DNA of 64,000 nt from Escherichia phage PhaxI (JN673056); one strand, 5' to 3'; positions 22,296 to 44,064 are shown, numbered from the stretch's first letter. Program-made: numbers and translations. Notes: generated by a model from the sequence alone, not told the origin.

Positions 22296-25200
22296 TCATG
22301 CCAGAGCAATAAGACGGAAGTCTTTGAATGAAGGAGGAGCAACTCGGTTCCCCCTTACAAGTGCTCTGACTTTCAGTCCAACGAACGGATTGTTGCTTGC
22401 CACAGTCTTATCATACTCATATTCAAAGAATGTAGAACCGTCGTTAACCAGAGGCGAAGTTGGAGTAACGTCTTCCCAATCCACGCTATCCATCTCTTGA
22501 CCTGCTCGGAGCAGTTTTACCTGCACCTTCATGGAGGATTGAGAAGGCAGCATCGCCCCGAAGAACAACTTCACAGTAGAACACGGATTATCAAATCCGA
22601 TGTCCTTTGTCACGTATTTGAAGACATCTTCAAATGGATCCACACCGTATGAGTTGAAGATTACGCTCAGGTCATCGCCATCAATCATTGGAGCAGTGTA
22701 CACGTTGTTTTCACTACGCGTCATGGTGGCTCGGATTTGGAAATCCCCGACCTGACGATAGATACCTTCAGTCGGCAATGCCACGTCAGTGTCAGTTTCA
22801 AACTCAGCCCAATCAGACATAGAATTTGAAGTGGCATCGCGATAACGGTATTCCAATTTCAGAATTGAACCTTCCAGAGCCGAATTGGTAACGCTGGCAT
22901 AGAACATATCAACCAGATAATTGCCCAAGAAAGAAGCATTATCTCCACCGATTTGTCCATTGCTGTCTGCTGCCGTACCGACGTCAATCTTGAATGAAGT
23001 ATAGCTCGCATCTGTCACAGTAAACGTTTTGTTAAGTTGTTCAGGAGTAAAGCCACAACCGCCTGTCAATTCAGAAAGAGTGACATTGTTCCCAGCAACC
23101 AAACCATGACCAGGTGCAAACACAGTCACAACAGAAGACCCGCTTACGCAGTTCAGAGTATTCAATCCCAACGGACGTTGTTTTGGCCCGAGCTTCGGAT
23201 CAAATGTTACAACGTTCTGCCCCGCAGCGAAGTTACAACGATATATGCGGAATTTCATATCAGCCATTTGGTTTGGAGACCATGTAGAACCGTTTGAAGA
23301 AGTGAAGAACACCCCTGTATACGGTTGTTTGGCGATATATTCGTTGGACAGAAGGTTTTTCTTGCCCATTTCCGCGATATACGCGTTGTAATCCTGAGTA
23401 TTCGCCAACAAAACGATAGCAAACTCAGTCGATGCTTGCAGATACACCGGATAATCAAAGGTGAACTTCGTACCGCCGGAAGAGTCTGTAGAGATCGTCA
23501 CTTCAGACGGGTTCAAAGTTTTACGAGTAATGACTGTATGAGAAGGTAAGCCATTCTCCATCTCGCGAATTTCCAGAGTGATCGGAACATCACGTGACTT
23601 GGTAGAGAAGAATACTTCCACGCCTTCAATATACTCGCCGCCATTCTTAGTCGCTACCATAAACGATTGGGCAATCGGATCACGCCATTGGTCGACCACA
23701 ACTTCAGAAGTGCTGGTTTCGGTGCGAGTACTAGCAGTGTAACCCAGGACACGAGTGTTGACAAAGGTCTTTTGAATACCTTGTTTCTTACCGAAAGATT
23801 TATGAACAATTTCTGCATTGGTCAGTGTATCATCCGCAGATTTACTGTCAACAGGGCTATCCGTTAAGCGGAACACGTTGTCGCCTGTGTTGAACTTGAT
23901 TGTATCGTTCTGTGGAACGCGGAATATACCTTTAACAGCACCATTGGCATCAGTGGTGATTGGGTCACCGAAATTACCACCATTCGGTTTGCAATACAGA
24001 TTGACGTCACGACCAGAGAAGAACGCATACATACGAGTGAAAGGTCGCAGCCCAGATGCGTCGAAAGAAATATCGATCTCGCGCATGTATGGGATAACTT
24101 GCGTCTCCACAATCTGTTCACCAGTCATGGTCGTGGTTGTTTTGTCCGTGTATGTATATGCGGTGACATCACGGGCAGAAACAGTCGTGCGGTAAGGATA
24201 TCCCCCCCACACACCACCAGCGCCATGCGGTTCCCAAACACGATCAGAAACAGAAACAGTATGCCATGTTCCGTACACTGAACCTTCTTGTACAGTACCA
24301 CGGGTGTTGATCGTTTCATTGATAATACGCGGCGCAACATAATAGTTTTCGAACCAGTAGTCTGTGGTCGGGTTAATCTTCAAGAAACCTTCCCAATTGA
24401 ATACTGCATACGGGTTAACGTTGATCGTCGTCGTCGCATATTCTTGGTTCACTGAGATTTCAGGCGTGTAATTACAAACCACCATCCCATCCATCACTTT
24501 GTTCCAGCCAACAGGAGTCATGTCAACAACGTTCTGTTGTACAAACGGGCGTAGACGTCCGTTTTCGGTATCGATAGAACCCATCCAATCTTCAGACAAG
24601 TCATCAATCAACCGGAAGTCTTTGAACGGATCAGCTGCAATACCATTTTTGAAACGGGGATTGCCCGTGATGGGGTCGAACACTTGCTGTGTCATCGCTG
24701 AAGATTCCAACTGTGACAGAGAGGTATAGTATTCAACATTGGAAATACGGGTTTCCAGTTTACCGATATCGCGCATTGTATACCGACGATTATCAATAGT
24801 TCGAATTTGGATATCATCAATATTCGGCGTATACGGCGGGATCAACAGTTCATACAAACGCATGGCGTTCGCTGGGATTGCTGGAGAAGCCAGGTTGTTA
24901 GAACTGATGCCACGAGCCACTCCGAACACGCCGTTGTCTGCCAGATAAATCGCGTCGATGCGCGGCAGATAATATTCTGTGTCCAGAATAACTGCAGTGT
25001 TTGGACGAACCATATCTGTGTCAGAAGTTCCGTTGGTGATTTTCGGACGGAAATCCAAACTATCTGCCAGGCCGTACACCGCGCCTGATGTAGAAGATGT
25101 ATAATTCGGGATATCTTTATAATCCATCGAAGTATACGAATCAGCAGAGAAGAAATCACCGGAACTGTGGGCGAAGTATTGATACACCACTGTATACGTC

Positions 25201-27134
25201 CCTGAGATTGCTCCAGCGCTGGATAACAAGTTAGACTTGTAATACCCTGCATCACGCTGTCCGCCGTCTAGGACGAAGCTGGAGGTCACGTCTGCGCCAG
25301 TATCGTTTTTTACCGACACCAATTTCCAACCATCGTGATTCGCCAAAGGACGGCTAGTCTGCGAGGTGAACGTCACTGTTTCAGTTGTTTCAGTGATGGT
25401 CTTCGTTTTGATTGTGGCCGTGGTACGAATCATCAGCGCCAGCAAATTGATTGACTGGTTAGCATTACCACTGCCTAGAGAAATCTGCAGCGCCGAACCG
25501 ACCGGAGAACCAGTCAAAGACAAAGAACCAGAGATATCGAACTGCGCTTCAGAACCATCAGATTTCGCTGCAGAGTACAACGAAAATTCTGGGGAAAAAC
25601 TATATCCCAATGGAGCAGAAATAGAACCCGCGCCGCTGTTGTCCAACGTCACTTTATACGTTCTGAGAACAGTGTAGTTGATATCCACGGAGCCAGTTGG
25701 TGCTAAAGTCTTGACACCGAATACCGGAAGAGAGAAGATCAGATCTATCATAGAACTCTGGTTAAACTGATTGGATTCCAGTTCAGCAGAGAACATGGTG
25801 ATACCGCTTTCTTCGTAAGACACTTTGGTGATAGTGGACGCGTCCCCAGTCACAACTAAATCACGCATGTACAGGCGGAATTCAGTTGAATTGCGTTCAG
25901 CGGATATACACAACGCCGTGGCTTGAGTAGCGCCGGATGCATTCAATAACTTGTATCGCACAGTGCGAGATATTACTGGAACACCTTTGGAGTTCTTGGT
26001 GACCAGATAATTCCCTGTAGCAACTGCGACAGGCGTGTTATTCAGGACATCGGTATCCCGTGCCTTGTCAACGATCACCAACTCTTCCCCGACGTTTTCG
26101 ATACGACGACCGCGAACATAGGAAATACCTGGTTTCATTACAGACACGAATTTACTTTCGTCGCCGCCATCAGCAGCATTGAATACACCACCATTGTTAT
26201 TGACTTTCAGGTGTTCGCGGATGTCGATCTGGTGCGTTGAAACGTTGTAATCGCCGTTGGTTTCATACGTCCGTTGGGCCAACGTGTCTTCCAGAATATT
26301 ATAGGTGGACTGAGTCACCATAGACTGGATTTTACCATCACGAACTTTGGCCAGTTCAACAAAGTCTTCAACCACAGCATCATAATCAAATCGAGATAAG
26401 ACCAGATCTATTCGAAGACGATGAGCGCCTGGGGCTTTGGAGTTAATCGTTCCCTGAGCATTTGAATAAAGGGATTCGTCTTCAGATTCAGTCACGATGG
26501 TTTCAGTGACTTTAAATCCGACGCGGTGGGAAGACGTGTTCGAAGTTTTATCAACGATAAGAGTTGCGTCATCAACGTCTAGGAACATCCCACGAATGAA
26601 GTAAACGCCTTTCGTCATACGAGCAACGATAGAACCAGTCACAGCAGCCGCGATACCATAACCAATACGAATGAAATTATCATTCACGTCGTAAGTCTGG
26701 AAATACAGATTATCGTTAACATGGAATCCGTCAGCATTACCCGCTTCAGTCATCTCAAGGATAGCCAGCATTGTATCAGGAGCAGACAGATCACGTTCAA
26801 GAGACAACACACGCGCTTTGGCGTTATTGTCTTTCCCCAAAACGTAGAGTTCAGAAATACCTTCCAGATCAGTGAATTCAGTACCACCAGCCAAAGTGAA
26901 TTTCAAAGAGACTGCGGCATTGGTAATCGTCAGACCACCAGGGATAACCATAGAACCATCTTTGAACAAATGGTTGCCCAGTTTTTCAATTTGATCCTGA
27001 AGAATAGTCTGCATCTGGTTCAGTTCGCGAGTCTGAACCTTGATAGGCATCGGACGAAAAAGAATCCGTGAAAAACGTTTCCCAGGATTCCAGTCATCCC
27101 AATACGGGCGACGGTTTAAATTTGTAGATTGCAT
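22296..27134 (-). CDS. very large virion structural protein (1612 aa), putative tail fiber/baseplate-associated
   Basis: Single uninterrupted ORF; Thr/Ser/Asn/Gly-rich beta-type composition; CTAAATAT motif about 34 nt upstream; terminator upstream at 27201-27226. Confidence 0.6.
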   Translation of the reverse strand: MQSTNLNRRPYWDDWNPGKRFSRILFRPMPIKVQTRELNQMQTILQDQIEKLGNHLFKDGSMVIPGGLTITNAAVSLKFTLAGGTEFTDLEGISELYVLGKDNNAKARVLSLERDLSAPDTMLAILEMTEAGNADGFHVNDNLYFQTYDVNDNFIRIGYGIAAAVTGSIVARMTKGVYFIRGMFLDVDDATLIVDKTSNTSSHRVGFKVTETIVTESEDESLYSNAQGTINSKAPGAHRLRIDLVLSRFDYDAVVEDFVELAKVRDGKIQSMVTQSTYNILEDTLAQRTYETNGDYNVSTHQIDIREHLKVNNNGGVFNAADGGDESKFVSVMKPGISYVRGRRIENVGEELVIVDKARDTDVLNNTPVAVATGNYLVTKNSKGVPVISRTVRYKLLNASGATQATALCISAERNSTEFRLYMRDLVVTGDASTITKVSYEESGITMFSAELESNQFNQSSMIDLIFSLPVFGVKTLAPTGSVDINYTVLRTYKVTLDNSGAGSISAPLGYSFSPEFSLYSAAKSDGSEAQFDISGSLSLTGSPVGSALQISLGSGNANQSINLLALMIRTTATIKTKTITETTETVTFTSQTSRPLANHDGWKLVSVKNDTGADVTSSFVLDGGQRDAGYYKSNLLSSAGAISGTYTVVYQYFAHSSGDFFSADSYTSMDYKDIPNYTSSTSGAVYGLADSLDFRPKITNGTSDTDMVRPNTAVILDTEYYLPRIDAIYLADNGVFGVARGISSNNLASPAIPANAMRLYELLIPPYTPNIDDIQIRTIDNRRYTMRDIGKLETRISNVEYYTSLSQLESSAMTQQVFDPITGNPRFKNGIAADPFKDFRLIDDLSEDWMGSIDTENGRLRPFVQQNVVDMTPVGWNKVMDGMVVCNYTPEISVNQEYATTTINVNPYAVFNWEGFLKINPTTDYWFENYYVAPRIINETINTRGTVQEGSVYGTWHTVSVSDRVWEPHGAGGVWGGYPYRTTVSARDVTAYTYTDKTTTTMTGEQIVETQVIPYMREIDISFDASGLRPFTRMYAFFSGRDVNLYCKPNGGNFGDPITTDANGAVKGIFRVPQNDTIKFNTGDNVFRLTDSPVDSKSADDTLTNAEIVHKSFGKKQGIQKTFVNTRVLGYTASTRTETSTSEVVVDQWRDPIAQSFMVATKNGGEYIEGVEVFFSTKSRDVPITLEIREMENGLPSHTVITRKTLNPSEVTISTDSSGGTKFTFDYPVYLQASTEFAIVLLANTQDYNAYIAEMGKKNLLSNEYIAKQPYTGVFFTSSNGSTWSPNQMADMKFRIYRCNFAAGQNVVTFDPKLGPKQRPLGLNTLNCVSGSSVVTVFAPGHGLVAGNNVTLSELTGGCGFTPEQLNKTFTVTDASYTSFKIDVGTAADSNGQIGGDNASFLGNYLVDMFYASVTNSALEGSILKLEYRYRDATSNSMSDWAEFETDTDVALPTEGIYRQVGDFQIRATMTRSENNVYTAPMIDGDDLSVIFNSYGVDPFEDVFKYVTKDIGFDNPCSTVKLFFGAMLPSQSSMKVQVKLLRAGQEMDSVDWEDVTPTSPLVNDGSTFFEYEYDKTVASNNPFVGLKVRALVRGNRVAPPSFKDFRLIALA

Positions 27135-27167
27135 TTTGATGCTCCATCGATTGCCATTTTATAGAGA

Positions 27168-27174
27168 TATTTAG
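27168..27174 (-). promoter_or_regulatory. late-promoter-like motif CTAAATAT
   Basis: About 34 nt upstream of the 1612-aa gene, downstream of a terminator hairpin. Confidence 0.4.
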
Positions 27175-27200
27175 TATACAGCCAATAAACAGATAGAAAT

Positions 27201-27226
27201 AAAAACCCCGCCTAAGCGGGGGTTTT
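27201..27226. terminator. hairpin terminator
   Basis: CCCCGC-CTAA-GCGGGG hairpin flanked by A-run and TTTTG. Confidence 0.55.
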
Positions 27227-27291
27227 GTTAAACAGTTACGTTATAATGTTTACTACATCATTAAAATATTGATTAATTTACTACTATGCTG

Positions 27292-29535
27292 TTAATCAGT
27301 ATACGCCATCAAGAACATAATAAGCTCATCATAGCGTACTCCGTACCTTACTCCTGCTGGTTTAACTATTACAACTTCTTCTAACGTTTCTGGATTAATG
27401 ATTATTTCAGAAGACGCTTCCCATTCGTCCTTGCACCAGAATGCGTAATCCTCTGGTTTAAGTCCGTGCTTTGTCAGGATAGAACCAACAGTTTGCGCAC
27501 CAACGCCGAAGTGGACTCGTGCAGACTCTTCTCCCTTAATTTCTATAGCGTCAGTAAACTTATAGCGAATAATATTATTGCGAATTTCATTAGCCGCTTC
27601 CCTTTCCGCACTCTCGTTTGTTGCTGGGGTTTTTACCTTCAGTGTTTCATCGGAGGTGCTTATTGTTCCCGTTGCAGCATAGACAACAGACCATCTATGT
27701 GATGTATATCCTAATACGGTCGTATTGTCTGTATCAGGCATAAATCCATTGTATCCACCAATCTTAAGGTCGCCATTTGGGTTTCCGGATGACGTTTTAC
27801 CATCATAACTTCTCAGAGTTACTCCTTTCGTTCCGGCAGTGGTATCTACCAAGATACCAGCGTTGGTAGAACCTAGAAGCTGAATTCCACTATTATCATT
27901 ACGCAAATCCTGCACAGGTGCTTCAAGTACAGTTGCTGTAAATTTCCATTTTGTATCGGAATAAAATTCAGCAGGTGAAGTATCATCACTTTGTATGATT
28001 ACCGCTTGTTTGCCAGATTCTCTTCTACGACACCAGCAATATTTTTCTGGGTTGGATCCCAGTTACTAGAGACAAGCACCCCATCAAATTCTACTAATGA
28101 TTCAAAAGGTTTACCTACTGCACGCGTTGGGGTTTGGGACAAAAATACCCCAGTTCCAATCAAAGAAATTGTTATACGTACCAACATTATCATCTATCTG
28201 ATACCCACGAGTGCATAATTCGCCAAAATAACCATAGAATCGCAAGTTACCAGCAACTTGGGTGTCACTGCTCACCCTTTTAACAACACGTACCGCACAA
28301 GGTACATCAGCAGGCCAAGTGCCTTGTGTGATGTTCTCTGAATGTCCACCGAATACGCGAAGGCTATCTGTACTTTCAATCCAGAAGCTACAGTTACCGG
28401 TTGCATGGTGCGGGTCGTATATATGAATGCGGGTATTATTATTATCGCCACTCTCTGATCGTTCGAAGAAGAAACCACAGTCAACACGTTCGAAGTTAGG
28501 ATTCATAATGGAATGGTAATAAGCACCACTATTGCTACCACCTACAGTTGGGCCAGGTTTGAACTTGATACCAATCTTAACACCACGTGCTCGTGGGTTC
28601 TCCATTACACAGAACTGCTGAGATACACGCACTGTTGTTTGAGTTTCATTTTCTGGTGCAATAGCATAGGCGATAACGTCAGTGTGGTTACTTGGGTTAA
28701 TTACTGTTGGATTTATAACGTGGCAGAAATCATGACTCATGCGAATACAGGTAATGTTATTGGCACCTGCCACAATCACTGTCCCAGTGAAATCCAGATA
28801 GCGAGTTGACATTACATCCTGGGTATATGAACCGTCAAATTTCATTACGAGGCTATTCGTAATGAGATACTTAGCCCCAGGTCTGCCAACCAACTTACCG
28901 AAAGGTATCCCCTCTAGCCACACTAATGCTTCCAACATTGAGGCAGTGTCATTAGTAACCCCATCTCCAATCGCACCAAACTCTTCAAATGATTTTATTG
29001 TAGTAACCCGATGGGCAATTTGGTCAATTGTTGGACCATACTTTGTTAGGTCAGTTATAAGAGACGTAGCCCCAACACTAACCCAAGCACCCACGCCAAT
29101 CCCGCCAGATTCTTCTGGTGTTGAACTGGCAGGTACACTTTTAGGCAATGCCCCATCCCAACGGTATCTACCATCTGTAAAAGTAACCAATTCATTCTTG
29201 GTATTAACAGTTACACCAGTAGAGAATGAACCAGGTAGAGTTACATACTCTTCACGAGTAACAGCTAATGCACCAAGGTCTACATTACCTCCAGAATGAA
29301 CCAATACACCAGCAGTATTAAGACTGACGGCAGTAGTACCAGCACCAAGGTCAGTAGGTAAGGAATAAGCTCTCTGTGTTACTTTATCATAGATGACTTT
29401 ATAGCCACTTAATACAGCACCGATAGAGAAGTAAACAACCTCAGATTGCTTAACTCCAAAGTGACGAGCTACTGCTTGCTTGTTGGTTAAGATTCCAGTT
29501 GAACCTTTTCCACCTTGTGAGAACAGTTCGTTCAT
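27292..29535 (-). pseudogene. tailspike/tail fiber gene with C-terminal intramolecular chaperone-like domain, apparently interrupted by two frameshifts
   Basis: Three ORF pieces: frame A 28111-29535, frame B 27999-28193, frame A again open from 28062 to 27292 with no ATG (track start is GTG at 27915); C-terminal piece has SDETLK and YGVRYDELIMFL, typical of autocleaving chaperone domains. Confidence 0.5.
28111..29535 (-). CDS. tailspike N-terminal/central portion (474-aa ORF)
   Basis: N-terminal domain VYFSIGAVLSGYKVIYDKVTQRAYSLP...YRWDG shared with the 1036-aa tailspike; beta-helix-like repeats. Confidence 0.6.
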   Translation of the reverse strand: MNELFSQGGKGSTGILTNKQAVARHFGVKQSEVVYFSIGAVLSGYKVIYDKVTQRAYSLPTDLGAGTTAVSLNTAGVLVHSGGNVDLGALAVTREEYVTLPGSFSTGVTVNTKNELVTFTDGRYRWDGALPKSVPASSTPEESGGIGVGAWVSVGATSLITDLTKYGPTIDQIAHRVTTIKSFEEFGAIGDGVTNDTASMLEALVWLEGIPFGKLVGRPGAKYLITNSLVMKFDGSYTQDVMSTRYLDFTGTVIVAGANNITCIRMSHDFCHVINPTVINPSNHTDVIAYAIAPENETQTTVRVSQQFCVMENPRARGVKIGIKFKPGPTVGGSNSGAYYHSIMNPNFERVDCGFFFERSESGDNNNTRIHIYDPHHATGNCSFWIESTDSLRVFGGHSENITQGTWPADVPCAVRVVKRVSSDTQVAGNLRFYGYFGELCTRGYQIDDNVGTYNNFFDWNWGIFVPNPNACSR

Positions 29536-29585
29536 ACATACCTCTTTGTTTTTCTAGTGATATCCCTCCGAAGAGGGGTATATTT

Positions 29586-32369
29586 TTAAATAGAAGAATC
29601 CAATATACGGTAACTAATTAACTTAGTAGGGTCTACAGGATTAATCAGGTTGTAGTACCGTGAAGATACATAATCATTCTCAGAAGAGAACATACCAACA
29701 TACACTTTAGCACCTACACCAGAACAGGCATCCCCACCAGCATTGCTATCCGAGAAGAATGTTAATGAGGAAGTTAATCCGAATATAGAATTAAATGGTA
29801 CGGCTAAATAAGCGCCTCGGAATGACCGTCTGATTCTCTTACCCGTCTGAATATTAAGAATACTCCACCAGAAATATCCAGGTTTAGCACCAATAGCTAT
29901 ATGATATGGTACACCACTTTGTAGTTTAAGGTCGTTAGGTAAATCCCCAGATAAAATTTGGGTTGTACCATCGCCCCCCAATAGCAAAGCAATTGTTTGT
30001 TTTCCAGAAGCGTCTATAACTAATTGAAGATGAAGACTGTTGGATGTATCACTAAACCCTGAACCAATGGCCATGAAGTTAAATACTTCAGCTCCAGATA
30101 TGGTAGGTACTACAACAGCAGCCATGGTAATACCTTCTGGACCTGCTGTTCTTGAATACAGTAATTTATCTTTGTTGGCTTGTGATAGTCTCAGACCATT
30201 TACTTGCCCTACAGAAGATGGGACACTTACATAAACAGGTGTAGTGCTAACACCATCAAATGTAGGGGTCTCGTTCATGGTTTGCAAACCAGTCTTGGAA
30301 TAATTAACCAATCCGTTAATGCTCAGGTCGGAATTGGTGGGGTTGATAATATTGTTATCACCAATAAAGTTAATGCCCATATAACCAGTCTCAACCACAC
30401 CATTAATGGTGACACTACAATCATTAGACAGGAACTGAAAATTGCCTGCACTAGAGTTAGCACCTGAACCACTATTCGCGGCATAATTGAGTCCTACGAA
30501 TCCGTTGATAACTGCATCGCTTTTGTTAAATACGATGTTGTAGAAAGTGTTGTTAGCATTGATGCCGTTACGATTGGTGTTCAATCCGTTCATGGAAATT
30601 GAATATGAATCGCTAATCTCAATGCCATTCCCGCCACAATCTTGTACCTCAATACCATTAATAACCATATTCTGGCTGTTATTAATAGTAATGCCTGGGA
30701 ACTGTCCTACTGTACCATAAGGTTGCCAGTTAGCCCAAATGAATTTACCGCCCAATAAATACGAACCATTACCACAACCATCAAGAACCAGACATTGTTT
30801 ACCGCAGGTATTAACCTGGATATTTGTCCAAGTCCAATCAGTAGTAGCACAACGGACACCCACCTGATTGATGTGGTTGACTAAAAGAGAATCTGTAGTA
30901 ACACTAAAGTTACCACTATCAATATTTAACCCATATTCATCAAAACCTGCTATATGGACCTTAGAAATACACAAGTCGCGTCTTGGGTCTGCGGTAGTGT
31001 GGAACGGATAATCGGCTGAGAGACCTGAAGGAGTTTCTACATAGATACCTGTTGTGCCCGCAGTAAATGGCATGCCTTGTTGTGCACCTGTGCCATATAC
31101 CCCAAAGGCGTCTAATACAATAAGGGAGCATGTATCTTTTATGGTAATACAATTCCCAGTAGCAGAAGGCAACTGATGCAACCTTGAGTAATGTAATCCA
31201 GACCCATAAATAGACGACGTATTATATTTTAACTGGATATTGCTAACGTAATGTGCATCAGTTAATTGTGTGGCCTTACCACTATCCACACAAGATTGTA
31301 CTGGAATAGTATCATCATTAGAACCACCCAAAGCACCAAACATGAATGGGTTAACTCTATCAGCATTAACACGTAACCATGCCGCGCCGCCAACAGTTTT
31401 GATCACAGTACCGTTATTATCAGTCTTTCCTGTACCATCAATTAACGCACGGAATACCCCTCCACCAAGAAGAGTACCCGCAGTGTGTTGCTTAAGAATA
31501 ATGCGTTGTCCATCCATAGTGGGTTCAGTATTCCTGAGATCAGCAACAGAATGGCATTCTCCAATATACTTGGCACCATCATTGCGCCCCAGAGTGTTTA
31601 TCACATTAATAAATGAATCCTCTAAAGGCAACAAATCAACCTGCACATCACCTGGGTTGTAATTCAATTTCCCAGCAGATACAGAAGAAATGACAGAACC
31701 ATCAGGAATGGTTGGTAAACCATAACTGGTTTGCGTCGCTATATCATAAACAACTTTCTTCCCATCCAACAAAGATATGGTGTCCGTACTAACGATGACT
31801 TCAGAGTCTTTTACATTAGCAGAACGGGCGATTTCTTGAATACTTCGGTCAAACGCCGGACTGATATTCGGTTGTTTAACAGACATTTCAGCGACTACCC
31901 AAACGCCTGCAGTCAGTGCAGTTTGCAAAGACACTTTCCCTGTCGTGCTGTTATAGGAATATTCAATTTCGGGTGTTTTGTACTCGCCACCGATATAAAG
32001 AGATTGGACACCATAGGATGTGAAATCAGGAGTGAACTCGGTTTCACCTCCCACGGCCTGAAATTTGTATATGCGGATACCTTTGGCTGTATCTTCTGGC
32101 GAAAGAATTTTATCGAATAAGCAATACACAACATCGCCTTTGGACAATGCGCGCCCGAGATTCAACGTATTTCCTTCGATTTCAAAGTTGTCTAACGGAA
32201 CTTGCATACCACCGTTGATTGTGACTACGCCAGTGACAGGATAGAACGGCAAGGAAAGGAAAGTTTCTCCACCAACATTTGATTTATACGTGAAAGGAAT
32301 CTGGTGGGGAGCTGTGATTACGCCGCCGAATAATTCTTCTACATTTCTGGTCATTTGAAAATACCCCAT
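29586..32369 (-). CDS. tailspike protein with right-handed beta-helix-like domain (927 aa)
   Basis: Asn/Gly/Ser-rich repeats such as NGIEISDSYSISMNGLNTNRNGINANN; related anchor segment near residue 170; CTAAATACCCC motif upstream. Confidence 0.65.
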   Translation of the reverse strand: MGYFQMTRNVEELFGGVITAPHQIPFTYKSNVGGETFLSLPFYPVTGVVTINGGMQVPLDNFEIEGNTLNLGRALSKGDVVYCLFDKILSPEDTAKGIRIYKFQAVGGETEFTPDFTSYGVQSLYIGGEYKTPEIEYSYNSTTGKVSLQTALTAGVWVVAEMSVKQPNISPAFDRSIQEIARSANVKDSEVIVSTDTISLLDGKKVVYDIATQTSYGLPTIPDGSVISSVSAGKLNYNPGDVQVDLLPLEDSFINVINTLGRNDGAKYIGECHSVADLRNTEPTMDGQRIILKQHTAGTLLGGGVFRALIDGTGKTDNNGTVIKTVGGAAWLRVNADRVNPFMFGALGGSNDDTIPVQSCVDSGKATQLTDAHYVSNIQLKYNTSSIYGSGLHYSRLHQLPSATGNCITIKDTCSLIVLDAFGVYGTGAQQGMPFTAGTTGIYVETPSGLSADYPFHTTADPRRDLCISKVHIAGFDEYGLNIDSGNFSVTTDSLLVNHINQVGVRCATTDWTWTNIQVNTCGKQCLVLDGCGNGSYLLGGKFIWANWQPYGTVGQFPGITINNSQNMVINGIEVQDCGGNGIEISDSYSISMNGLNTNRNGINANNTFYNIVFNKSDAVINGFVGLNYAANSGSGANSSAGNFQFLSNDCSVTINGVVETGYMGINFIGDNNIINPTNSDLSINGLVNYSKTGLQTMNETPTFDGVSTTPVYVSVPSSVGQVNGLRLSQANKDKLLYSRTAGPEGITMAAVVVPTISGAEVFNFMAIGSGFSDTSNSLHLQLVIDASGKQTIALLLGGDGTTQILSGDLPNDLKLQSGVPYHIAIGAKPGYFWWSILNIQTGKRIRRSFRGAYLAVPFNSIFGLTSSLTFFSDSNAGGDACSGVGAKVYVGMFSSENDYVSSRYYNLINPVDPTKLISYRILDSSI

Positions 32370-32386
32370 AAAGGATTTGCCAATAT

Positions 32387-32397
32387 GGGGTATTTAG
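32387..32397 (-). promoter_or_regulatory. late-promoter-like motif CTAAATACCCC
   Basis: Minus-strand CTAAATACCCC upstream of the 927-aa tailspike gene; embedded in inverted repeat AAATACCCCAT...ATGGGGTATTT. Confidence 0.45.
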
Positions 32398-32459
32398 GCT
32401 GAACTAATAAAATTTATAATAAGATCCCCCCGCTTTTGGCGAGGAGGGATGGTTGTTAA

Positions 32460-35400
32460 TCATATCAATCCGTAAATGACATTGTGTATTGCAATACCAC
32501 CAACAATAGAGGAAACATTGAAATTAATTTCAGCTTTGTAAGCTCCTGGCGGAACGCAATCCACCAAAGCATAAAAGTTGAACGTGTTTCCTACTGGGAT
32601 GTTATATCCTATGGAATCCGCGACAGCATTTCCTTGCTGGTCCAGGAATCTAATTGATGCCAGGGTGGTTGTTGTATTTTTAGCCCAAAAACCAAGTTGA
32701 AAATAACGCCCAGGCTCACAGTCAATGATTGTCTGGGTGAAATTAGCCGCTGCACCCACTGATGGTACGGATAAGACAAAAGAAGTTGAAAACATTAAAT
32801 CATTAGGGACATCATTTCCTACAGTAGCGGTGACAACGCCGGATCCAGTTTGTGACAGCGCCCAGTTAGATATATTATTAAACTGTCCTGAACCGTTACT
32901 AATACTGTTTATATGAGGGCTTACAATGCATCCTAAATCCCAGTTACTTGTGATAAATCCTGCGCGTGGATAGCAACCTCTAGACATTACTTTTTTACTT
33001 AATCCGCCTATCAACTGCCTTGTGGCAAATCCAGTAGCAATCGTTGTATTCCCATAGAGTGGTAGCGAACAATTATTTAGAATAACAACCCCATCCCCGT
33101 TGTTTACAATAGGTACTGTAGAATAATCATTTGGCAACAGTATCGTCGAATCACTGATGCTTAATCGTGAACTACCATCCACAGTAAACCCAACGAAACT
33201 CTGACCTGGTTGATACTCAATGTTACCGTTTGTGAAAACCATAGTTGCGTTATCAGATAACGCGACAACAGGGTCAAAATATCGTGATTTTTTTACTGCT
33301 GGCAGAGAGCAGCTATCGAATATAAATTGACCATTAACAAACGTGAAAGGTCCACCGTTGTCAACCATCCAACAATGATTAAATTTTATAACCTCACCGG
33401 AATTCGCTGGTGAATTGAAAATAACAGAATTTGTAAAACTTCTGGACAACGTACATTTATCAAAAAGAATACGATATGCATTATCAAGAAACTCAATTCC
33501 GGCAGTTGAGATAAACCCGCAATTAGATATTCTTAACTCTGAGACTTCTCCACTGGTAGAACCACCGATCGCCAATTTCCTGGTCCCTTTTCCAACAAAT
33601 GACACTCCAGTCATTAACGCAGTTGCGTTAATTACATCTCTATTGGTGTAATCCGTGTCTGTATTAACAATGGTTAGATAGTAGCCGCCCGTTGCAGATG
33701 CAGATTCTATTAGAGTACATTTATTTTTTCCAATAAGTGCACCTTTTGCTATATCAAAAATAATCGGTGTTGTTATCTCACCAGAAACAGGGACTACACA
33801 GTCAAATCCGACGGCATTTATTTTATTGATGAATATAGCCAAATCTCCGGTTCCTGTATAACCAGCTTCGTACACATCCACCACACCGTTGAATAATTTC
33901 CTTTTCCAAACGACACCATTGCCTTGGAAAGTAACGATATTATCTACCACAGTATCTGAGTTAACAGCCACCATAACACCGCCACCAAGATTAAACCCGT
34001 CAACATACGAATCAAGAATTATAGAATCACCAATTAATCCTGCTATTGATGATAATTCAGAAACTGATGATACGGTTCCTATATAAGATAAGCCATTCGG
34101 TTTATTTAAATTACTTTTCAGAGATGCAACACCAACACTCAACCATGCACCTAAACCAACGCCACCAGATGTTTCAGGTGTTGAGCCAGCATCGACAGTT
34201 TTAGGAAGTGAACCATCCCAGCGATACTTACCGTTCGTATGGGTGAGTAATTCATTTTTAGTATTGATGACAGCACCAGAATCAAATGTCCCAGACAAGG
34301 TAACATACTCTTCACGAGATACAGCTAATGCGCCCAGATCAACACTACCAGCAGAATGCACAAGCACAGCCGAAGAACTAAGGCTGACCGCCGTGGTTCC
34401 AGTCGGTAGCTCTGGAATAAAATATGATCTCTGTGTTACTTTATCATAGATAACTTTATACCCGCTTAACACTGCACCAACACTAAAATAAACAACCTCT
34501 GTATCTTTAACATTGGTTACACGAGCCACTTCCCGCAAAGTATAATCAATTTGATTATAGATGTTTGGCGTTCCATTGATAATTACAACAACTTCATCCT
34601 CTGCATCCAGTTCTTGCGCAAGAGTGATTTTACTGGTTAATGGATCGAATGTGAACCCCAGGTTTTTATACTGGCGACTTCCGTTTATATCAATGGCTGG
34701 AACATCATCGACAACGATGTCTAACGTGATTTCGGTTTCACCACCAATCGCAGAACCACCATTATAGACCCAGGTAATCGTAGAAGAACTAGAACCACCG
34801 CCATTACCCAATTGAATAGGAGTATATTCTATTACCTGCAATTCAGTGCTGGCTGGCAAAGAAGGACTGAAAGTGATTACATTCCCATCTAATGAATATT
34901 TGGATTCCGCAAGACGTTTTCCGTCAGCATACACGTCCACAATTGTTGGTGGAGTATTGAGAGTGACAGCACTTGTTTCAGACGCCAAAATTTGTGTAAA
35001 GATTTCACGACTGTAGACACGGCCTTGACCAAGACCGACGCCGGATGTGATAACCCAACCTTGTTCATGTCCAGACCAAGTGAACGTTGCTGAAACATTA
35101 TCAGTTGTTATAGCCATGTCTTCAGTGGAACCATACAAATTATTTCCAGAAGGAGACACGGTCAATGGGTAAGTGGCAAATTTCCCATAAGCATCACAAA
35201 TAGTAACGGAATCCCCAATACGCGTAGGGGAAGGGAGAACCACTGTAGATGTCCCTGTGGTATTATTAATGAGATATCCACGACCTTCTAACAAATTGCT
35301 AGAGGGAGCGTGAGGGAGCGTTTCCCAGCGTATTCCACCACCCCCCAAAGACAACCAACCACCGTTTTCGTAATAACCTTCAAATTCATCACTATCAGGA

Positions 35401-35570
35401 TTGTAACGCACAGAAGATGGAAGACCTGTAACTTCAGTATCTTCAGGAAATGTCATTACGGCACCAGGGGAATGCTCAATAGTGCCGGAGTTGTTGAAGC
35501 CTTTTATGTTCGAAGACTCAGAAGTTTCTAAACCCAAAGGGAAAAGAGGCTGTGTTGGTTTGTTGGCCAT
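32460..35570 (-). CDS. tailspike protein (1036 aa)
   Basis: Internal domain VYFSVGAVLSGYKVIYDKVTQRSYFIP...YRWDG nearly identical to the N-terminus of the 474-aa ORF; beta-helix-like repeats; CTAAATACCCC motif upstream. Confidence 0.65.
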   Translation of the reverse strand: MANKPTQPLFPLGLETSESSNIKGFNNSGTIEHSPGAVMTFPEDTEVTGLPSSVRYNPDSDEFEGYYENGGWLSLGGGGIRWETLPHAPSSNLLEGRGYLINNTTGTSTVVLPSPTRIGDSVTICDAYGKFATYPLTVSPSGNNLYGSTEDMAITTDNVSATFTWSGHEQGWVITSGVGLGQGRVYSREIFTQILASETSAVTLNTPPTIVDVYADGKRLAESKYSLDGNVITFSPSLPASTELQVIEYTPIQLGNGGGSSSSTITWVYNGGSAIGGETEITLDIVVDDVPAIDINGSRQYKNLGFTFDPLTSKITLAQELDAEDEVVVIINGTPNIYNQIDYTLREVARVTNVKDTEVVYFSVGAVLSGYKVIYDKVTQRSYFIPELPTGTTAVSLSSSAVLVHSAGSVDLGALAVSREEYVTLSGTFDSGAVINTKNELLTHTNGKYRWDGSLPKTVDAGSTPETSGGVGLGAWLSVGVASLKSNLNKPNGLSYIGTVSSVSELSSIAGLIGDSIILDSYVDGFNLGGGVMVAVNSDTVVDNIVTFQGNGVVWKRKLFNGVVDVYEAGYTGTGDLAIFINKINAVGFDCVVPVSGEITTPIIFDIAKGALIGKNKCTLIESASATGGYYLTIVNTDTDYTNRDVINATALMTGVSFVGKGTRKLAIGGSTSGEVSELRISNCGFISTAGIEFLDNAYRILFDKCTLSRSFTNSVIFNSPANSGEVIKFNHCWMVDNGGPFTFVNGQFIFDSCSLPAVKKSRYFDPVVALSDNATMVFTNGNIEYQPGQSFVGFTVDGSSRLSISDSTILLPNDYSTVPIVNNGDGVVILNNCSLPLYGNTTIATGFATRQLIGGLSKKVMSRGCYPRAGFITSNWDLGCIVSPHINSISNGSGQFNNISNWALSQTGSGVVTATVGNDVPNDLMFSTSFVLSVPSVGAAANFTQTIIDCEPGRYFQLGFWAKNTTTTLASIRFLDQQGNAVADSIGYNIPVGNTFNFYALVDCVPPGAYKAEINFNVSSIVGGIAIHNVIYGLI

Positions 35571-35603
35571 TTGTAATACCCCTAAATGTATTCATGTCAT
35601 CTA

Positions 35604-35614
35604 GGGGTATTTAG
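35604..35614 (-). promoter_or_regulatory. late-promoter-like motif CTAAATACCCC
   Basis: Minus-strand CTAAATACCCC upstream of the 1036-aa tailspike gene; inverted repeat with TAATACCCCTA at 35574-35584. Confidence 0.45.
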
Positions 35615-35616
35615 TT

Positions 35617-36807
35617 TTAGAAAGAAGCTGCAATAGAATAGTCGACAGAACAAGCAGTTGTCGTGTTTGCATTAACAACGGAAATTCTCAATTTACCACC
35701 CACCACAGCCCCTGTGAACGTCACTGTACCGCTCGTACTTTTCTGAACCAACAACTCTGTTTTGATCGTTCCGTCACGAGTTATGGTTACTCGATATGTG
35801 TCAACAACGTTACCTGTCCCCCATTGCGCAGTTACCAGTATTTGACAAAGGTTCACCAAATCAAAATCTGGAAGAGCCGTCGTTCCAGAAGCCGAAACCG
35901 TGTATGACGACAAATTCGTTTTGGTACGATAAACGGCGTTCCCCAAACTATTGTCGATAGAGGTCATCTTGGCATTATACGTTGATACACTAACTTTATC
36001 ACTGGAAAGAGAACTGATGCTGTTATCCAGAGATGTCATCTTCGTGTTGTACGTGCTAACCTCGACTTTATTACCCAGAGACGTATTGATATTGGAGATA
36101 CTCAAATCCAATGACGCCATCTTAGTGTTGTAAGTCGAGGTGTTGACTTTCCCGTTCAACGACGTGTTGATGTTATTAATCTGGGACTCTAAACTCAGCA
36201 TATCTGCATCATACGCTGTCGTTGTCACATATCCATTAAATCGGTTATCTGCAAACAACGCATCAAAAAATGCAGTCATTGTCCAATAATGCGCTCCAGA
36301 ATCTGTTTGTACTGGAACTGAAGTCGGCAACGTTGGTCCGGTATACGCAGACAATCTGGTGAAATCCAAATTGAATTTGTAATATCCGGATGTCAACAAC
36401 TCCCCAGCCAAACCAGAACCAGGCGGGGTAGTGTCTTCACTGACGCCATGCTTTCTCAACATGCTCAGGTTAACACCATCTGTTGAGTTCGTTGGTTCAT
36501 CTGTTATTGAAACAGATTTTCCGGCGGGAACTTGTATGCCCCCATTGGTCACCAACAACGCATTGAAAGTCTTTTTACCATTGATCGTTTGCTCGCCACT
36601 ATCTGTCCGAATAACTTTGTTAGCCAGAGTATCGTTGATTGTGTCAACAGATCTTTTCAACTCATAAGTCAGACGAGCAGAAGGCGGAAACAATGGGTCA
36701 CTAACTTCAAAATCATCAATGACGTCGTTTTTACTTACTTTGTCGTCAACAGAACCCAATATCTGATCTATCTGCTGACCTGTATATTGACTCAGAAATC
36801 GGGCCAT
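35617..36807 (-). CDS. tail fiber-like protein with tandem coiled-coil repeats (396 aa)
   Basis: Four repeats of about 24 aa of the form VxxSTYNTKMxSLDxSISN; SD AAGGAG. Confidence 0.55.
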   Translation of the reverse strand: MARFLSQYTGQQIDQILGSVDDKVSKNDVIDDFEVSDPLFPPSARLTYELKRSVDTINDTLANKVIRTDSGEQTINGKKTFNALLVTNGGIQVPAGKSVSITDEPTNSTDGVNLSMLRKHGVSEDTTPPGSGLAGELLTSGYYKFNLDFTRLSAYTGPTLPTSVPVQTDSGAHYWTMTAFFDALFADNRFNGYVTTTAYDADMLSLESQINNINTSLNGKVNTSTYNTKMASLDLSISNINTSLGNKVEVSTYNTKMTSLDNSISSLSSDKVSVSTYNAKMTSIDNSLGNAVYRTKTNLSSYTVSASGTTALPDFDLVNLCQILVTAQWGTGNVVDTYRVTITRDGTIKTELLVQKSTSGTVTFTGAVVGGKLRISVVNANTTTACSVDYSIAASF

Positions 36808-36810
36808 TTT

Positions 36811-37638
36811 TTAGCTCCTTGTGCTTTCTAGGAATACAGTAAATCCAGCGGGATGAAAATGCTGACGGAAGACGCGCTCAAACACACCTTCAAAATCAGA
36901 TACGTCGCCTGGGACTCCTATAACATAAGTGTATTCATCATAATAGTAATCATCACGCATCCCTGTCGTGCCGTCACATTCAAAATTTCCGTCCAGACCG
37001 CCTATGTCTTCTTTCGTAAAATAGACGCTGACTGGACAACCAAAATATATCCAAAAGAACAATTCAATCGCTTTCTTTGTTCCACGTATTTTATAGATGT
37101 GTTTCAACAATTTCAACCAACGCGGATGATCCAGAGTTCTCCGTTTCGTTCCTTCGATATAAACAGAGAACGTATCGCCCGTGGCCGTCAATAAAGAATC
37201 CGAACCGACTGGGATAAAATGTCCAAATTCTTGAAATGATTTATCAACAGTTCGTTGGAAACCAAAATCATTATACCAGTCATCTATCTGTTTGTTCTTA
37301 TCTTCTATTGACAGTAGCGGCCTTCCGTCGGAATCTAAAAGTTCTTCGGCATCCAGAGCCATCATGTTCTCAAAGGTACGAACCAAGAATTTATCAGACA
37401 AATAATCCTTGGCCTCTGAGCCTGGCTGCTTAACTGGAGAATCTTCACTCTCAGGATTCATCCAACTAGACGTATCTGCCAGATATGCCAAGATCTCTTC
37501 TTGAGTGAACCCCTGCTGTCTATACAACCAATTGAAGAACGTGTCCATAAATTCTATGAACAGAGGGAAATCATTCTGGTAGAACAACGGAGTTTCATAC
37601 TTAACCCCGTTGTGTCCATTATTAAGATCTTTGGACAT
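36811..37638 (-). CDS. baseplate wedge-associated protein (start uncertain)
   Basis: Directly downstream of and overlapping gp6-like gene; ATG at 37638 with SD AGAGGTG chosen over track start 37671 (TTG). Confidence 0.4.
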   Translation of the reverse strand: MSKDLNNGHNGVKYETPLFYQNDFPLFIEFMDTFFNWLYRQQGFTQEEILAYLADTSSWMNPESEDSPVKQPGSEAKDYLSDKFLVRTFENMMALDAEELLDSDGRPLLSIEDKNKQIDDWYNDFGFQRTVDKSFQEFGHFIPVGSDSLLTATGDTFSVYIEGTKRRTLDHPRWLKLLKHIYKIRGTKKAIELFFWIYFGCPVSVYFTKEDIGGLDGNFECDGTTGMRDDYYYDEYTYVIGVPGDVSDFEGVFERVFRQHFHPAGFTVFLESTRS

Positions 37639-43516: not shown

Positions 43517-43583
43517 TTTAATAGGTTAGAACAACGGACTCATAATCCGTCAGGTCTCAGTTCAAATCTGGGTGGACCCACCA
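43507..43583 (+). tRNA. tRNA-Met (anticodon CAT); could equally be initiator or lysidine-modified Ile type
   Basis: Hand-folded cloverleaf: acceptor GGGTCTG/TGGACCC, D-stem GTTT/GAAC, anticodon stem ACGGA/TCCGT with loop CTCATAA, T-arm CTCAG-TTCAAAT-CTGGG, discriminator A, encoded CCA. Confidence 0.85.
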
Positions 43584-43689
43584 AACACAATGAGAGAAAC
43601 TGAAGTGAGAAAGCTCGGTTAAACGAGGGAGTAATTCAGGAGTATCTCACCACTAAATAAACCAGTTGTTCAATAAACAATTGGTGAGT

Positions 43690-43890
43690 ATGATGAAAAC
43701 GTTCGGTGATTTTCTTACTGAGTGGGATGGTCTCGCTACCGACAACAAAGAGATTGTTGAGTTTGTTGAAAAGCGAGGCGATAAGTGGGTTGTCCTTGAC
43801 CACACCAAGACTAAAGTTCTTGGGACACATGACACCAAAGCTGACGCGGACGCCCAATTAAGGGCGATCGAAGCGAATAAACATAGTTGA
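43690..43890 (+). CDS. hypothetical small protein (66 aa)
   Basis: ATG at 43690 with SD GGTGAG; CTAAATA motif about 35 nt upstream; sits inside the RNA island. Confidence 0.4.
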   Translation: MMKTFGDFLTEWDGLATDNKEIVEFVEKRGDKWVVLDHTKTKVLGTHDTKADADAQLRAIEANKHS

Positions 43891-44064
43891 AGGGTTCTAT
43901 ATTATGAAGAATATTTGGGCGGTGATTTCCAACAGAATTCGCGCTAGTTGGGAAGGTCGGATGGTGAGCATCAAGAACGGGTCTCATCCAAAAACTTACG
44001 ATCGTTATGATCCTGCCCTGGATCTTCATGCAGAATAAAGAGTGTTTACGAAAGTAAGAATAGA

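Follow-up and report, generated by a model that had tools for sequence, protein, structure and literature searches.

The tailspike gene cluster of PhaxI

The stretch of DNA analysed here (the window) comprises 64,000 nucleotides of Escherichia phage PhaxI (JN673056). As shown in Table 1, three tailspike ORFs lie on its minus strand and are transcribed in the order tsp4, tsp2, tsp1. Their products of 1036, 927 and 474 amino acid residues match exactly the PhaxI proteins AEW24389, AEW24390 and AEW24391, the last of which is the 1036-residue protein. The genes flanking the cluster are collinear with orf209 and orf215-217 of phage CBA120. The region is very probably the tailspike (tsp) cluster of a CBA120-like Kuttervirus (Ackermannviridae), and we are similarly confident that the three ORFs represent TSP1, TSP2 and TSP4 of a CBA120-type branched tailspike complex. 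Most Kuttervirus members have four tsp genes and a minority have three. The four-gene order tsp4-tsp3-tsp2-tsp1 is not found in PhaxI; tsp3 is located between tsp4 and tsp2 in CBA120, FEC14 and EP75, while only 90 nt separate these two genes in PhaxI.

Each protein has the domain order of its CBA120 counterpart. TSP4 has an AD and three T4 gp10-like domains (XD1-XD3) ahead of a D1-D2 head, TSP2 has XD2-XD3 followed by a head of D1 only, and TSP1 starts directly with a D1-D2 head. Residues 1-338 of TSP4 match PDB 7REJ end to end (E = 6e-220; 7RFO likewise, E about 1e-219) and residues 344-1036 match 5W6H, so that the chain is complete from the head through the C-terminus; 1004 of its 1036 residues (96.9%) are identical to CBA120 TSP4. 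TSP2 is also a complete chain, residues 6-927 matching the full-length TSP2 structure 6W4Q (5W6P was matched as well). It differs from CBA120 TSP2 at 11 of 921 aligned residues (98.8% identical) and retains the catalytic residues D506, E568, D571 and Y623. Residues 1-211 of TSP1 match residues 1-216 of PDB 4OJ5 (E = 5e-83). No protein in the window matched PF09008, the P22-type tailspike head-binding domain, in the Pfam search, and a tandem-repeat scan gave nothing relevant. The domain architecture and module swapping of these spikes have been published already, with crystal structures for most parts of the CBA120-type complex (PMC7506556, PMC8825819).

Table 1. Features of the PhaxI tailspike cluster (positions counted from the first nucleotide of the window; TSP4 domain limits from PMC8825819 and PMC8432352; TSP2 domains in the 922-aa numbering)
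Feature	Residues	Coordinates	Strand	Remarks
Terminator-like hairpin downstream of the tsp1 locus		27206-27221	-	terminator scan
tsp1 locus		27292-29535	-	2244 nt; one 747-aa gene in relatives
tsp1 part, 207-aa ORF		27292-27915	-	
C-terminal intramolecular chaperone (peptidase S74) domain		27460-27654	-	in the 207-aa ORF
Frameshifted interval of tsp1		28032-28151	-	DNA alignment with SS9, three-frame translations
tsp1 part, 474-aa ORF		28111-29535	-	
TSP1 beta-helix	~180-447	28195-28998	-	AlphaFold model of homolog P0026
TSP1 neck	between D2 (to 155) and beta-helix (from ~180)		-	
TSP1 D2	97-155	29071-29247	-	
TSP1 N-terminus and D1	1-96	29248-29535	-	
tsp2		29586-32369	-	927-aa ORF
TSP2 neck and O157-specific beta-helix body		29586-31589	-	specificity by analogy; PMC7506556
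TSP2 D1-only head	169-244	31623-31850	-	
TSP2 XD3	~95-168	31851-32072	-	
TSP2 XD2	~1-85	32100-32354	-	
12-nt-arm hairpin		32357-32397	-	overlaps the first ATG of the 927-aa ORF
TATAAAT-like box		between hairpins 32357-32397 and 32426-32446	-	motif search
tsp4-tsp2 intergenic region		32370-32459	-	
Terminator-like hairpin, tsp4-tsp2 intergenic region		32426-32446	-	terminator scan
tsp4		32460-35570	-	1036 aa; baseplate-anchored branching tailspike, by analogy
TSP4 neck and O78-type body	481-1036	32460-34130	-	specificity by analogy
TSP4 D2/TD2	422-480	34131-34307	-	
Putative crossover tract, 36 nt		34186-34221	-	tsp4 nt 1350-1385, codons RWDGSLPKTVDAG
TSP4 D1/TD1	340-421	34308-34553	-	
TSP4 XD3	265-335	34566-34778	-	
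TSP4 XD2	189-250	34821-35006	-	
TSP4 XD1	80-178	35037-35333	-	
TSP4 AD	1-75	35346-35570	-	

The likely start of tsp2 is the second ATG, at 32354, giving 922 residues. The tsp4-tsp2 intergenic region is identical to the tsp3-tsp2 intergenic region of FEC14, and a promoter repeat of ~60 nt precedes both tsp2 and tsp3. Within tsp2, three +1 changes in homopolymers were observed within 15 nt.

The shared head segment

An earlier note, made from the sequence alone, had described a segment shared by the three proteins. Pairwise alignment confirmed this observation. By pairwise BLASTP, residues 20-197 of the 474-aa protein align with residues 346-521 of the 1036-aa protein (59% identity, E = 4e-60), and the diverged copy reported in the 927-aa protein is present as a weaker match between its residues 178-249 and residues 20-92 of the 474-aa protein (38%, E = 5e-07). 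Residues 104-249 of the 927-aa protein align with residues 273-417 of the 1036-aa protein (34%, E = 2e-17). This match extends upstream into XD3, a module that the earlier note did not contain. No alignment among the three proteins was found by pairwise BLASTP beyond the head and XD3 segments, and tblastn found exactly three head copies in the window. The description "nearly identical" applies to the quoted motif of ~29 residues only and not to whole domains, since the 474-aa and 1036-aa proteins have 55 of 81 residues identical in D1 and 39 of 58 in D2. The DNA sequences of the tsp1 and tsp4 heads are 70-80% identical, for which reason recent gene conversion between these two copies was rejected.

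The shared segment is the D1-D2 (TD1-TD2) "head", a known domain of these spikes, with both D1 and D2 in TSP1 and TSP4 and D1 only in TSP2. The Pfam domain Tail_spike_N (PF18668) was found at the D2 position of the 474-aa protein (residues 91-155) and of the 1036-aa protein, and had no match in the 927-aa protein. Crystal structures of the homologs from CBA120 show D1-D2 and the beta-helix separated by an alpha-helical neck (PMC7506556, PMC8825819). The head is thus a separable module outside the catalytic body, as had been proposed. The bodies do differ from one another: a beta-helix is shown for TSP2 and TSP4 by crystal structures of near-identical proteins, and predicted for TSP1 from fold matches and from the AlphaFold model of a homolog with 78% identity. 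That homolog (P0026) was modelled as a monomer with a mean pLDDT of 66, and its stalk (residues 461-633) was unreliable and was left out. The expected modular arrangement of Ackermannviridae tailspikes, with bodies exchanged between spikes, likewise holds. Some E. coli proteins (P0034, P0041-P0044) have the same body as TSP1 behind a PF09008 head.

Assembly of the spike complex and host range

In CBA120, ultracentrifugation and domain deletion showed that AD and XD1 (residues 1 to ~180) anchor TSP4 to the baseplate, that TSP2 is bound to TSP4 through XD2, and that TSP1 docks by its D1 head on XD3 of TSP4 (PMC8825819, PMC8432352, PMC11721090). Docking and specificity were transferred from CBA120 to PhaxI, TSP2 and TSP4 being 97-99% identical. 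By this analogy, the AD/XD1 region would attach trimeric TSP4 to the baseplate, TSP2 would join TSP4 by an XD2-XD2 contact, and the N-terminal D1 head of TSP1 would plug into the acidic XD3 of TSP4, an arrangement to which we give a high probability. Charge calculation gave complementary values for the last contact (pI 9.5 for residues 1-40 of TSP1, net charge -9 for XD3 of TSP4), and the internal heads of TSP4 and TSP2 were acidic. A homologous complex of a head and an XD adaptor has been solved by cryo-EM (PDB 9D84; PMC11654681), and it matches TSP1 and TSP4/TSP2 of PhaxI. Only in TSP1, whose N-terminus is formed by the head, would this domain act as a docking plug; the heads of TSP4 and TSP2 are internal, between XD3 and the neck. 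Each spike would also bear a beta-helix glycosidase body of its own, with O157 specificity for TSP2 and of the O78 type for TSP4. The O-antigen glycosidase activity and the specificities are assigned by analogy with CBA120 (PMC7506556, PMC8432352).

This bears on the proposal that all three proteins plug through the shared segment into one separate adaptor, with a broad or switchable host range. The segment is indeed conserved in all three proteins, and TSP1 does dock by it (PMC8825819), so that its role as an anchor stands for TSP1. In TSP2 and TSP4, however, the head has no shown docking role and is preceded by AD/XD domains (170 residues in TSP2, 340 in TSP4), and anchoring and branching are assigned to these domains by deletion and ultracentrifugation data (PMC8825819). 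The published TSP4-N335 and TSP2 XD2-deletion experiments contradict a common anchor, and the cluster contains no separate adaptor gene; TSP4 and TSP2 are themselves the adaptors. A search of 26500-37000 found no inverted repeat of at least 18 nt, which rejects a host-range switch by an invertible segment. A common anchor with a broad or switchable host range is therefore very improbable. The modular head/XD architecture explains how several depolymerases are carried at once in Ackermannviridae, and it has already been used to engineer host range (PMC9965104, PMC12737597). In PhaxI, with tsp3 lost, at most two spikes are certainly intact, the O157-type TSP2 and the O78-type TSP4. The predicted receptor set is O157 and O78, possibly with an SS9-type receptor, which is narrower than that of the four-spike relatives.

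The tsp4/tsp3 junction

Within a 36-nt tract that lies where D2 ends, PhaxI tsp4 passes from TSP4-type sequence on the 5' side to TSP3-type sequence on the 3' side. Upstream of the tract, 92 of 92 nt are identical to EP75 tsp4, compared with 56-57 of 92 for tsp3 alleles. Downstream, nt 1356-1441 are identical to tsp3 of EP75 and FEC14 (86/86), compared with 70-79 of 86 for tsp4 alleles. The tsp3-type stretch was matched at >=99% by 37 phage records, the tsp3 location of these matches being checked in EP75 and FEC14. From nt 1351 to the stop codon, PhaxI tsp4 is about 100% identical to FEC14 tsp3 (585 of 587 amino acid residues), identity to FEC14 is 99.7% over the intergenic region and the beginning of tsp2, and the two phages are collinear over FEC14 tsp3-tsp2 from the junction onward. 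Relative to FEC14, PhaxI lacks 2413 bp, which correspond to the tsp3 head, an intergenic region and the tsp4 body. No tsp3 body or extra head copy was found in the 64-kb window by tblastn.

These data fit a deletion-fusion of tsp4 and tsp3 through the shared head. An unequal crossover within the 36-nt identical tract would have joined the 5' part of tsp4 to a FEC14-like tsp3 neck and body, removing the original tsp4 body and the tsp3 head, reducing the cluster to three tsp genes and leaving the XD3 dock of TSP2 empty. The head is a substrate for homologous recombination because its DNA is conserved among tsp1, tsp3 and tsp4. Recombination among tsp genes has been seen in the laboratory: one experiment yielded a chimeric tsp4, and another the loss of tsp3 together with a truncated tsp4 (PMC11414711). 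EP75 tsp4 has 79 of 86 nt of the "TSP3-type" neck in common, and therefore this neck stretch moves between tsp3 and tsp4. As for direction, FEC14 tsp3 could instead be the recipient of the neck and body from a PhaxI-like tsp4.

With a probability of about 55%, PhaxI may be read as a natural record of branch loss: in one step, an unequal crossover in the 36-nt identical tract at the D2/neck boundary would have created a hybrid TSP4 and cost the phage one receptor specificity, tsp1 would be decaying, and the head would serve in nature both as docking plug and as the hinge of cluster contraction and expansion. If so, the crossover point would not be the TD1 "GTTAVSL" site that has been proposed in the literature, and the junction is a precise natural example of recombination via the shared head.

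The tsp1 gene, split in this sequence

The three tailspike paralogs of the earlier note exist as three ORFs with a head in each, but the 474-aa ORF covers the first two-thirds (5') of a 747-aa gene that is interrupted in this sequence, and is not a natural full-length spike; its annotation as a PhaxI "tail protein" is misleading for this reason. SS9 has an intact 747-aa tsp1 of the same length that is 97% identical. Compared with SS9, the PhaxI sequence carries an additional G in the run at 28148-28151 and lacks one T beside 28032. These two 1-nt indels are 119 nt apart, and three-frame translations showed stops in the frame of the 474-aa ORF between them. When both sites are repaired, an open 747-aa frame with 20 amino acid differences from SS9 is obtained, and the 195-nt gap between the 474-aa and 207-aa ORFs encodes homologous protein in a shifted frame. 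A terminator scan found no terminator between the two ORFs. Salmonella phage 38 was left out as a comparator for tsp1, its record being fragmented into many short ORFs.

The chaperone domain in the 207-aa ORF was found with Pfam PF13884 (22.5 bits, cutoff 22), with PDB sequence matches to 7Y5S (4e-21), 4UW8 and 3GW6 and fold matches to 3GW6, 4UW8 and 3GUD. In the PhaxI sequence it is encoded by an ORF of its own; SS9, and each aligned homolog with this domain, has it within the spike chain. A very recent inactivation or an error in sequencing accounts for the split.

Alternative explanations

PhaxI tsp4 may be an ordinary CBA120-type gene of subtype TSP4-2, under which Sorensen et al. (PMC8432352) filed it, tsp3 having been lost separately via the ~60-nt promoter/hairpin repeats preceding tsp3 and tsp2 and FEC14 tsp3 having later copied its body from a PhaxI-like tsp4. 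The length of 1036 residues and the architecture are identical to those of CBA120 TSP4, the gap relative to CBA120 (1989 bp) corresponds to tsp3 and one intergenic region, and a conserved block is common to the regions upstream of tsp2 and tsp3. We nevertheless find this account doubtful, as the neck (nt 1356-1441) is identical to tsp3 alleles with different bodies and matches CBA120 tsp4 at only 73 of 86 nt, with near-identity between CBA120 and the PhaxI/FEC14 body starting only at about nt 1442; the body, terminator and tsp2 start are 99.7-100% identical to FEC14 and about 96% identical to CBA120. An assembly artefact, in which tsp3 was lost by collapse across the head sequence repeated in tsp3 and tsp4, is highly improbable. 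No second genome with collinear tsp4-tsp2 and no tsp3 was found among 50,697 phage records, and an exact search of IMG/VR with the 92-nt chimeric junction gave no match, as such an artefact would predict. Against it, a 36-nt identical tract is too short for 2.4 kb of unique DNA to have collapsed silently, no remnants of tsp3 or of the tsp4 body turned up elsewhere in the window, and the literature counts PhaxI as a three-spike Kuttervirus (PMC8432352).

For tsp1 the choice is more evenly balanced. The chance that both indels are sequencing or assembly errors, the real PhaxI having an intact 747-aa TSP1 and three working spikes, is about even. Both indels are in short homopolymer runs, as are the three changes in tsp2, and the substitution density between them is about twice the average of the gene. 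The repaired frame, which differs from SS9 at only the 20 of 747 residues given above, is well conserved past the break, so that the gene was under selection until very recently. On the other side, none of the other 52 CBA120-homologous genes in the window has a frameshift (52/52, each in a single frame), so that the record is not generally error-prone and a generally poor record is unsupported as the cause of the split. TSP2 alone suffices for a phage propagated on O157, and loss of other spikes is tolerated, both here (tsp3) and in the laboratory (PMC11414711). That the 474-aa protein is a genuine short tailspike, with the 207-aa ORF supplying a separate chaperone in trans, is very unlikely indeed, even though the 474-aa ORF holds the whole head, the neck and a confidently modelled beta-helix and the 207-aa ORF could start at a GTG. 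Of the homologs with this body, all 21 that were aligned run 250-290 residues further in one chain, the only member of 474 residues is PhaxI itself, the gap encodes homologous protein in the shifted frame, and the chaperone is the C-terminal part of a fibre or spike chain in 3GW6, 4UW8 and 3GUD.

Comparison with known systems

The closest known system is the branched TSP1-TSP4 complex of CBA120 (Plattner 2019; Chao 2022, PMC8825819; Greenfield 2020, PMC7506556), which belongs to the same genus and has the same gene neighbourhood and the same domain order (AD/XD1-3, D1/D2, neck, beta-helix). The TSP1 heads are about 90% identical over residues 1-155. PhaxI has three tsp genes and not four because tsp3, which is O77-specific in CBA120, is absent. 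Its TSP1 body, which is of the SS9 type and ends in an S74 chaperone, is unrelated to that of CBA120 and is interrupted in this sequence. Its tsp4 neck is TSP3-type, which places the head/body junction about 90 nt upstream of the position it has in CBA120. FEC14 (subtypes TSP3-3 and TSP4-7; PMC8432352) is 99.7-100% identical from the tsp3 body to the tsp2 start, where PhaxI has its tsp4 body to tsp2, and 83-100% identical, depending on position, in the 5' part of tsp4. Unlike PhaxI, it keeps the separate tsp3 head and the O21-type tsp4 body contained in the 2413 bp, and its tsp1 is different. Laboratory recombinants of kuttervirus S117 (Sorensen et al. 2024, PMC11414711) arose by tsp recombination through conserved 5' sequence, as proposed here for PhaxI, and were still infective. 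The S117 events were selected with CRISPR-Cas9 and an engineered tsp5, whereas the PhaxI arrangement is natural, with the putative crossover at the end of D2.

Head-on-XD adaptor pairs are also known in Schitoviridae, namely gp63.1/gp66 of G7C and gp48/gp49 of Shigella phage B2 (PDB 4QNL, 9D84; PMC11654681). Like TSP1, gp63.1 and gp48 have the D1-D2 head first (E = 1e-69 and 5e-68 against the 474-aa ORF), and gp49 and gp66 have XD domains like those of TSP4 and TSP2. These phages differ from PhaxI in being podoviruses with two partners and with esterase bodies instead of beta-helix glycosidases. The tsp1 locus ends in an S74-type chaperone, and C-terminal intramolecular chaperones are likewise present in K1F endosialidase (3GW6), T5 pb1 (4UW8) and phi29 gp12 (3GUD). 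Compared with such endosialidase-type spikes and fibres, the PhaxI chaperone is, in this sequence, cut off from the beta-helix by the frameshifted interval, and the N-terminus of tsp1 is a Kuttervirus D1-D2 head.

The tailspike proteins and their shared head

By exact-sequence look-up, the three large ORFs of the cluster are AEW24389, AEW24390 and AEW24391 of Escherichia phage PhaxI, and the cluster flanks are collinear with Kuttervirus CBA120, a four-spike phage.

Features of the PhaxI tailspike (tsp) cluster
Feature	Position	Strand	Remark
474-aa ORF (5' part of tsp1)	28111-29535	-	ORF scan
927-aa ORF (tsp2)	29586-32369	-	ORF scan
1036-aa ORF (tsp4)	32460-35570	-	ORF scan
tsp1 locus	27292-29535	-	Length equal to intact 747-aa TSP1 gene of phage SS9, 97% identical
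207-aa ORF (C-terminus of tsp1)	27292-27915	-	With S74 intramolecular chaperone domain
36-nt tract fitting both presumed parents of tsp4	34186-34221	-	

The segment shared by the three proteins is real and far beyond chance in pairwise BLASTP (E=5e-07 to 4e-60). Residues 20-197 of the 474-aa ORF aligned with residues 346-521 of the 1036-aa protein (59% identity, E=4e-60), and residues 20-92 with residues 178-249 of the 927-aa protein (38%, E=5e-07). The alignment of residues 104-249 of the 927-aa protein with residues 273-417 of the 1036-aa protein (34%, E=2e-17) revealed a second common module, the upstream domain XD3, which the earlier note had missed. Outside these segments BLASTP found no alignment among the three proteins. 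The "near identity" claimed for the 474-aa and 1036-aa proteins applies only to a motif of about 29 residues; by domain they have 55/81 residues (D1) and 39/58 residues (D2) in common, with 70-80% identity between their DNA copies of the head.

Crystal structures of CBA120 TSP4 match the 1036-aa protein (7REJ over residues 1-338, 5W6H over residues 344-1036), the full-length TSP2 structure 6W4Q matches the 927-aa protein, and the TSP1 structure 4OJ5 matches the 474-aa ORF over residues 1-211 (E=5e-83). For the second half of the segment, Pfam gave a Tail_spike_N match in the 474-aa and 1036-aa proteins but none in the 927-aa protein. The segment has been named the head; it consists of D1 and D2 (TD1/TD2) and leads through an alpha-helical neck into the beta-helix body, and the TSP2 head is D1 only (PMC7506556, PMC8432352). 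Since head, neck and body are distinct in this literature, with the neck between head and beta-helix, the segment is a separable module, as had been proposed, and not part of the catalytic body. Both the structure and the genetics of the system had been worked out in detail before; this analysis adds a correction to the 474-aa ORF and maps the natural junction of a probable fusion. The earlier note was sound in its observation and right only in part in its interpretation.

The docking scheme for the PhaxI spikes was transferred from CBA120 experiments. By this analogy TSP4 would be anchored to the baseplate via its domains AD and XD1, XD2 would be the part of TSP2 that binds TSP4, and XD3 of TSP4 would receive the TSP1 head; in four-spike phages XD3 of TSP2 receives the TSP3 head (PMC8825819, PMC11721090, PMC11414711). 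The window proteins match 9D84, the cryo-EM structure of a homologous pair of head and XD adaptor (PMC11654681). Residues 1-40 of TSP1 have a pI of 9.5, XD3 of TSP4 has a net charge of -9, and both internal heads, in TSP4 and in TSP2, are acidic; these charges fit the scheme. Taken together, scheme and charges suggest that the segment, described as an anchor in all three proteins, would serve as one in TSP1 only, the anchoring and branching modules of TSP4 and TSP2 lying upstream of it.

tsp1, split in this sequence

The 474-aa ORF represents only part of a spike. Compared with SS9, tsp1 carries an additional G in the G-run at 28148-28151 and, 119 nt away, is one T short near 28032; SS3 and SeKF_64 match the locus as well as SS9 does. 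Between the indels the 474-aa frame contains stop codons and the shifted frame reads homologous protein; with both sites repaired, an open 747-aa frame results, with 20 differences from SS9. All 21 of 21 aligned homologs with the SS9-type body extend 250-290 residues past the stop of the window ORF. In the AlphaFold model of a 78%-identical homolog, the break falls just after the beta-helix (residues 180-447), ahead of stalk and chaperone. The low amino-acid/nucleotide change ratio, downstream of the break included, shows tsp1 as a gene that, judged by its substitutions, was under selection until very recently.

The break may be real or, about as likely, a sequencing error. An error is suggested by the position of both indels in homopolymers, by a local rise in the density of differences from SS9, and by tsp2, where 15 nt hold three +1 homopolymer changes (30750-30770); however, 52/52 other conserved window genes are unbroken, which argues against a generally poor record. 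These tsp2 expansions (gene nt ~1585-1605; GGTTCGTATTTATTGGGC vs GGTCGTATTATTGGC in CBA120 and FEC14) turn GRIIGG into GSYLLGG in the beta-helix; the altered stretch is either an in-frame patch of an unusual kind or an artefact of sequencing.

A probable tsp4-tsp3 fusion

In CBA120, FEC14 and EP75, tsp3 sits between tsp4 and tsp2, where the window has 90 nt; a search of the 64-kb window for a further head copy found none besides those of the three spike genes. From nt 1351 to its stop, window tsp4 is ~100% identical to FEC14 tsp3 (585/587 aa), and identity to FEC14 runs on through the intergenic region and the tsp2 start at 99.7%. The sequence 5' of nt 1349 is of TSP4 type (EP75 tsp4 92/92 nt, tsp3 genes 56-57/92). 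Over nt 1356-1441 tsp3 of EP75 and FEC14 match at 86/86 and tsp4 alleles at 70-79/86, and 37 records of the phage collection match at 99% or more. In CBA120 tsp4, near-identity to the PhaxI/FEC14 body does not begin until about nt 1442.

On these alignments, window tsp4 looks like a tsp4-tsp3 fusion. In the simplest reading, the old tsp4 body and the tsp3 head would have been lost in a single unequal crossover, a deletion of 2413 bp when compared with FEC14. A less likely alternative is that tsp3 was lost via the promoter repeat that precedes both tsp2 and tsp3. Comparable recombination events have been obtained in the laboratory (PMC11414711), and recombination via the head has been proposed in silico (PMC8432352).

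Receptors and host range

Between the TSP2 proteins of PhaxI and CBA120 there are 11 residue differences, and D506, E568, D571 and Y623 are conserved; PhaxI TSP2 is predicted to recognise the O157 O-antigen. TSP4 has a body of the O78 type (PMC8432352). XD3 of TSP2 would be without a partner in PhaxI. No switch element was found, a search of 26500-37000 having given no inverted repeat of 18 nt or longer. The host range, which had been taken as broad or switchable, would therefore be plural but reduced, tsp3 being missing.

The SS9-type TSP1 body recurs behind P22-type heads and other N-termini. Public proteins show at least three other N-terminus kinds (P0034, P0041-P0044, P0047-P0051), among them PF09008, the head-binding domain of P22 type, in proteins of E. 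coli, and a long, unrelated N-terminus in proteins of ~790 aa. The body is thus a cassette with a wide distribution.

The tsp2 start and neighbouring genes

The first ATG of the 927-aa ORF sits within a hairpin arm, without a Shine-Dalgarno sequence (32354-32369). The second (32354, MTRNVEEL...) follows a GGGG run and corresponds to the start adopted for CBA120 TSP2 (921 aa), so that the true PhaxI protein is probably 922 aa long. A conserved block 5' of tsp2 (32357-32425), in relatives 5' of both tsp2 and tsp3, has a T4-late-promoter-like TATAAAT, then CTAAATACCCCATA ... TATGGGGTATTT, which form a 12-nt-arm hairpin right ahead of the start codon. A 14-mer of the block occurs 4 times in the window (0.3 expected), also at 36-49 and 48186-48199. 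The block may be a late promoter or a translational control element.

Directly upstream of tsp4, a 396-aa ORF (35617-36807), homolog of CBA120 orf215, has several copies of a ~17-residue motif, STYNTKM.SLD.SIS...KV. Its only match, BppL_N-like, is weak, its PHROG is of unknown function, and its product may be a baseplate component of fibre-like or coiled-coil type. Three tRNA genes lie at 43507-44913 (Met-CAT, Asn-GTT, Ser-GCT); the fourth of the CBA120 cluster, Ile-GAT, was not reported by ARAGORN in the window. The cluster adjoins the 1612-aa DUF4815 protein "VriC" (22296-27134), homolog of CBA120 orf209 and 99.6% identical to CBA120. In the spacer 27135-27291, top-matching records share only about 97-118 nt beside the VriC start codon; beyond this match homology ends at the variable tsp1 body, which marks one edge of the recombining cassette.
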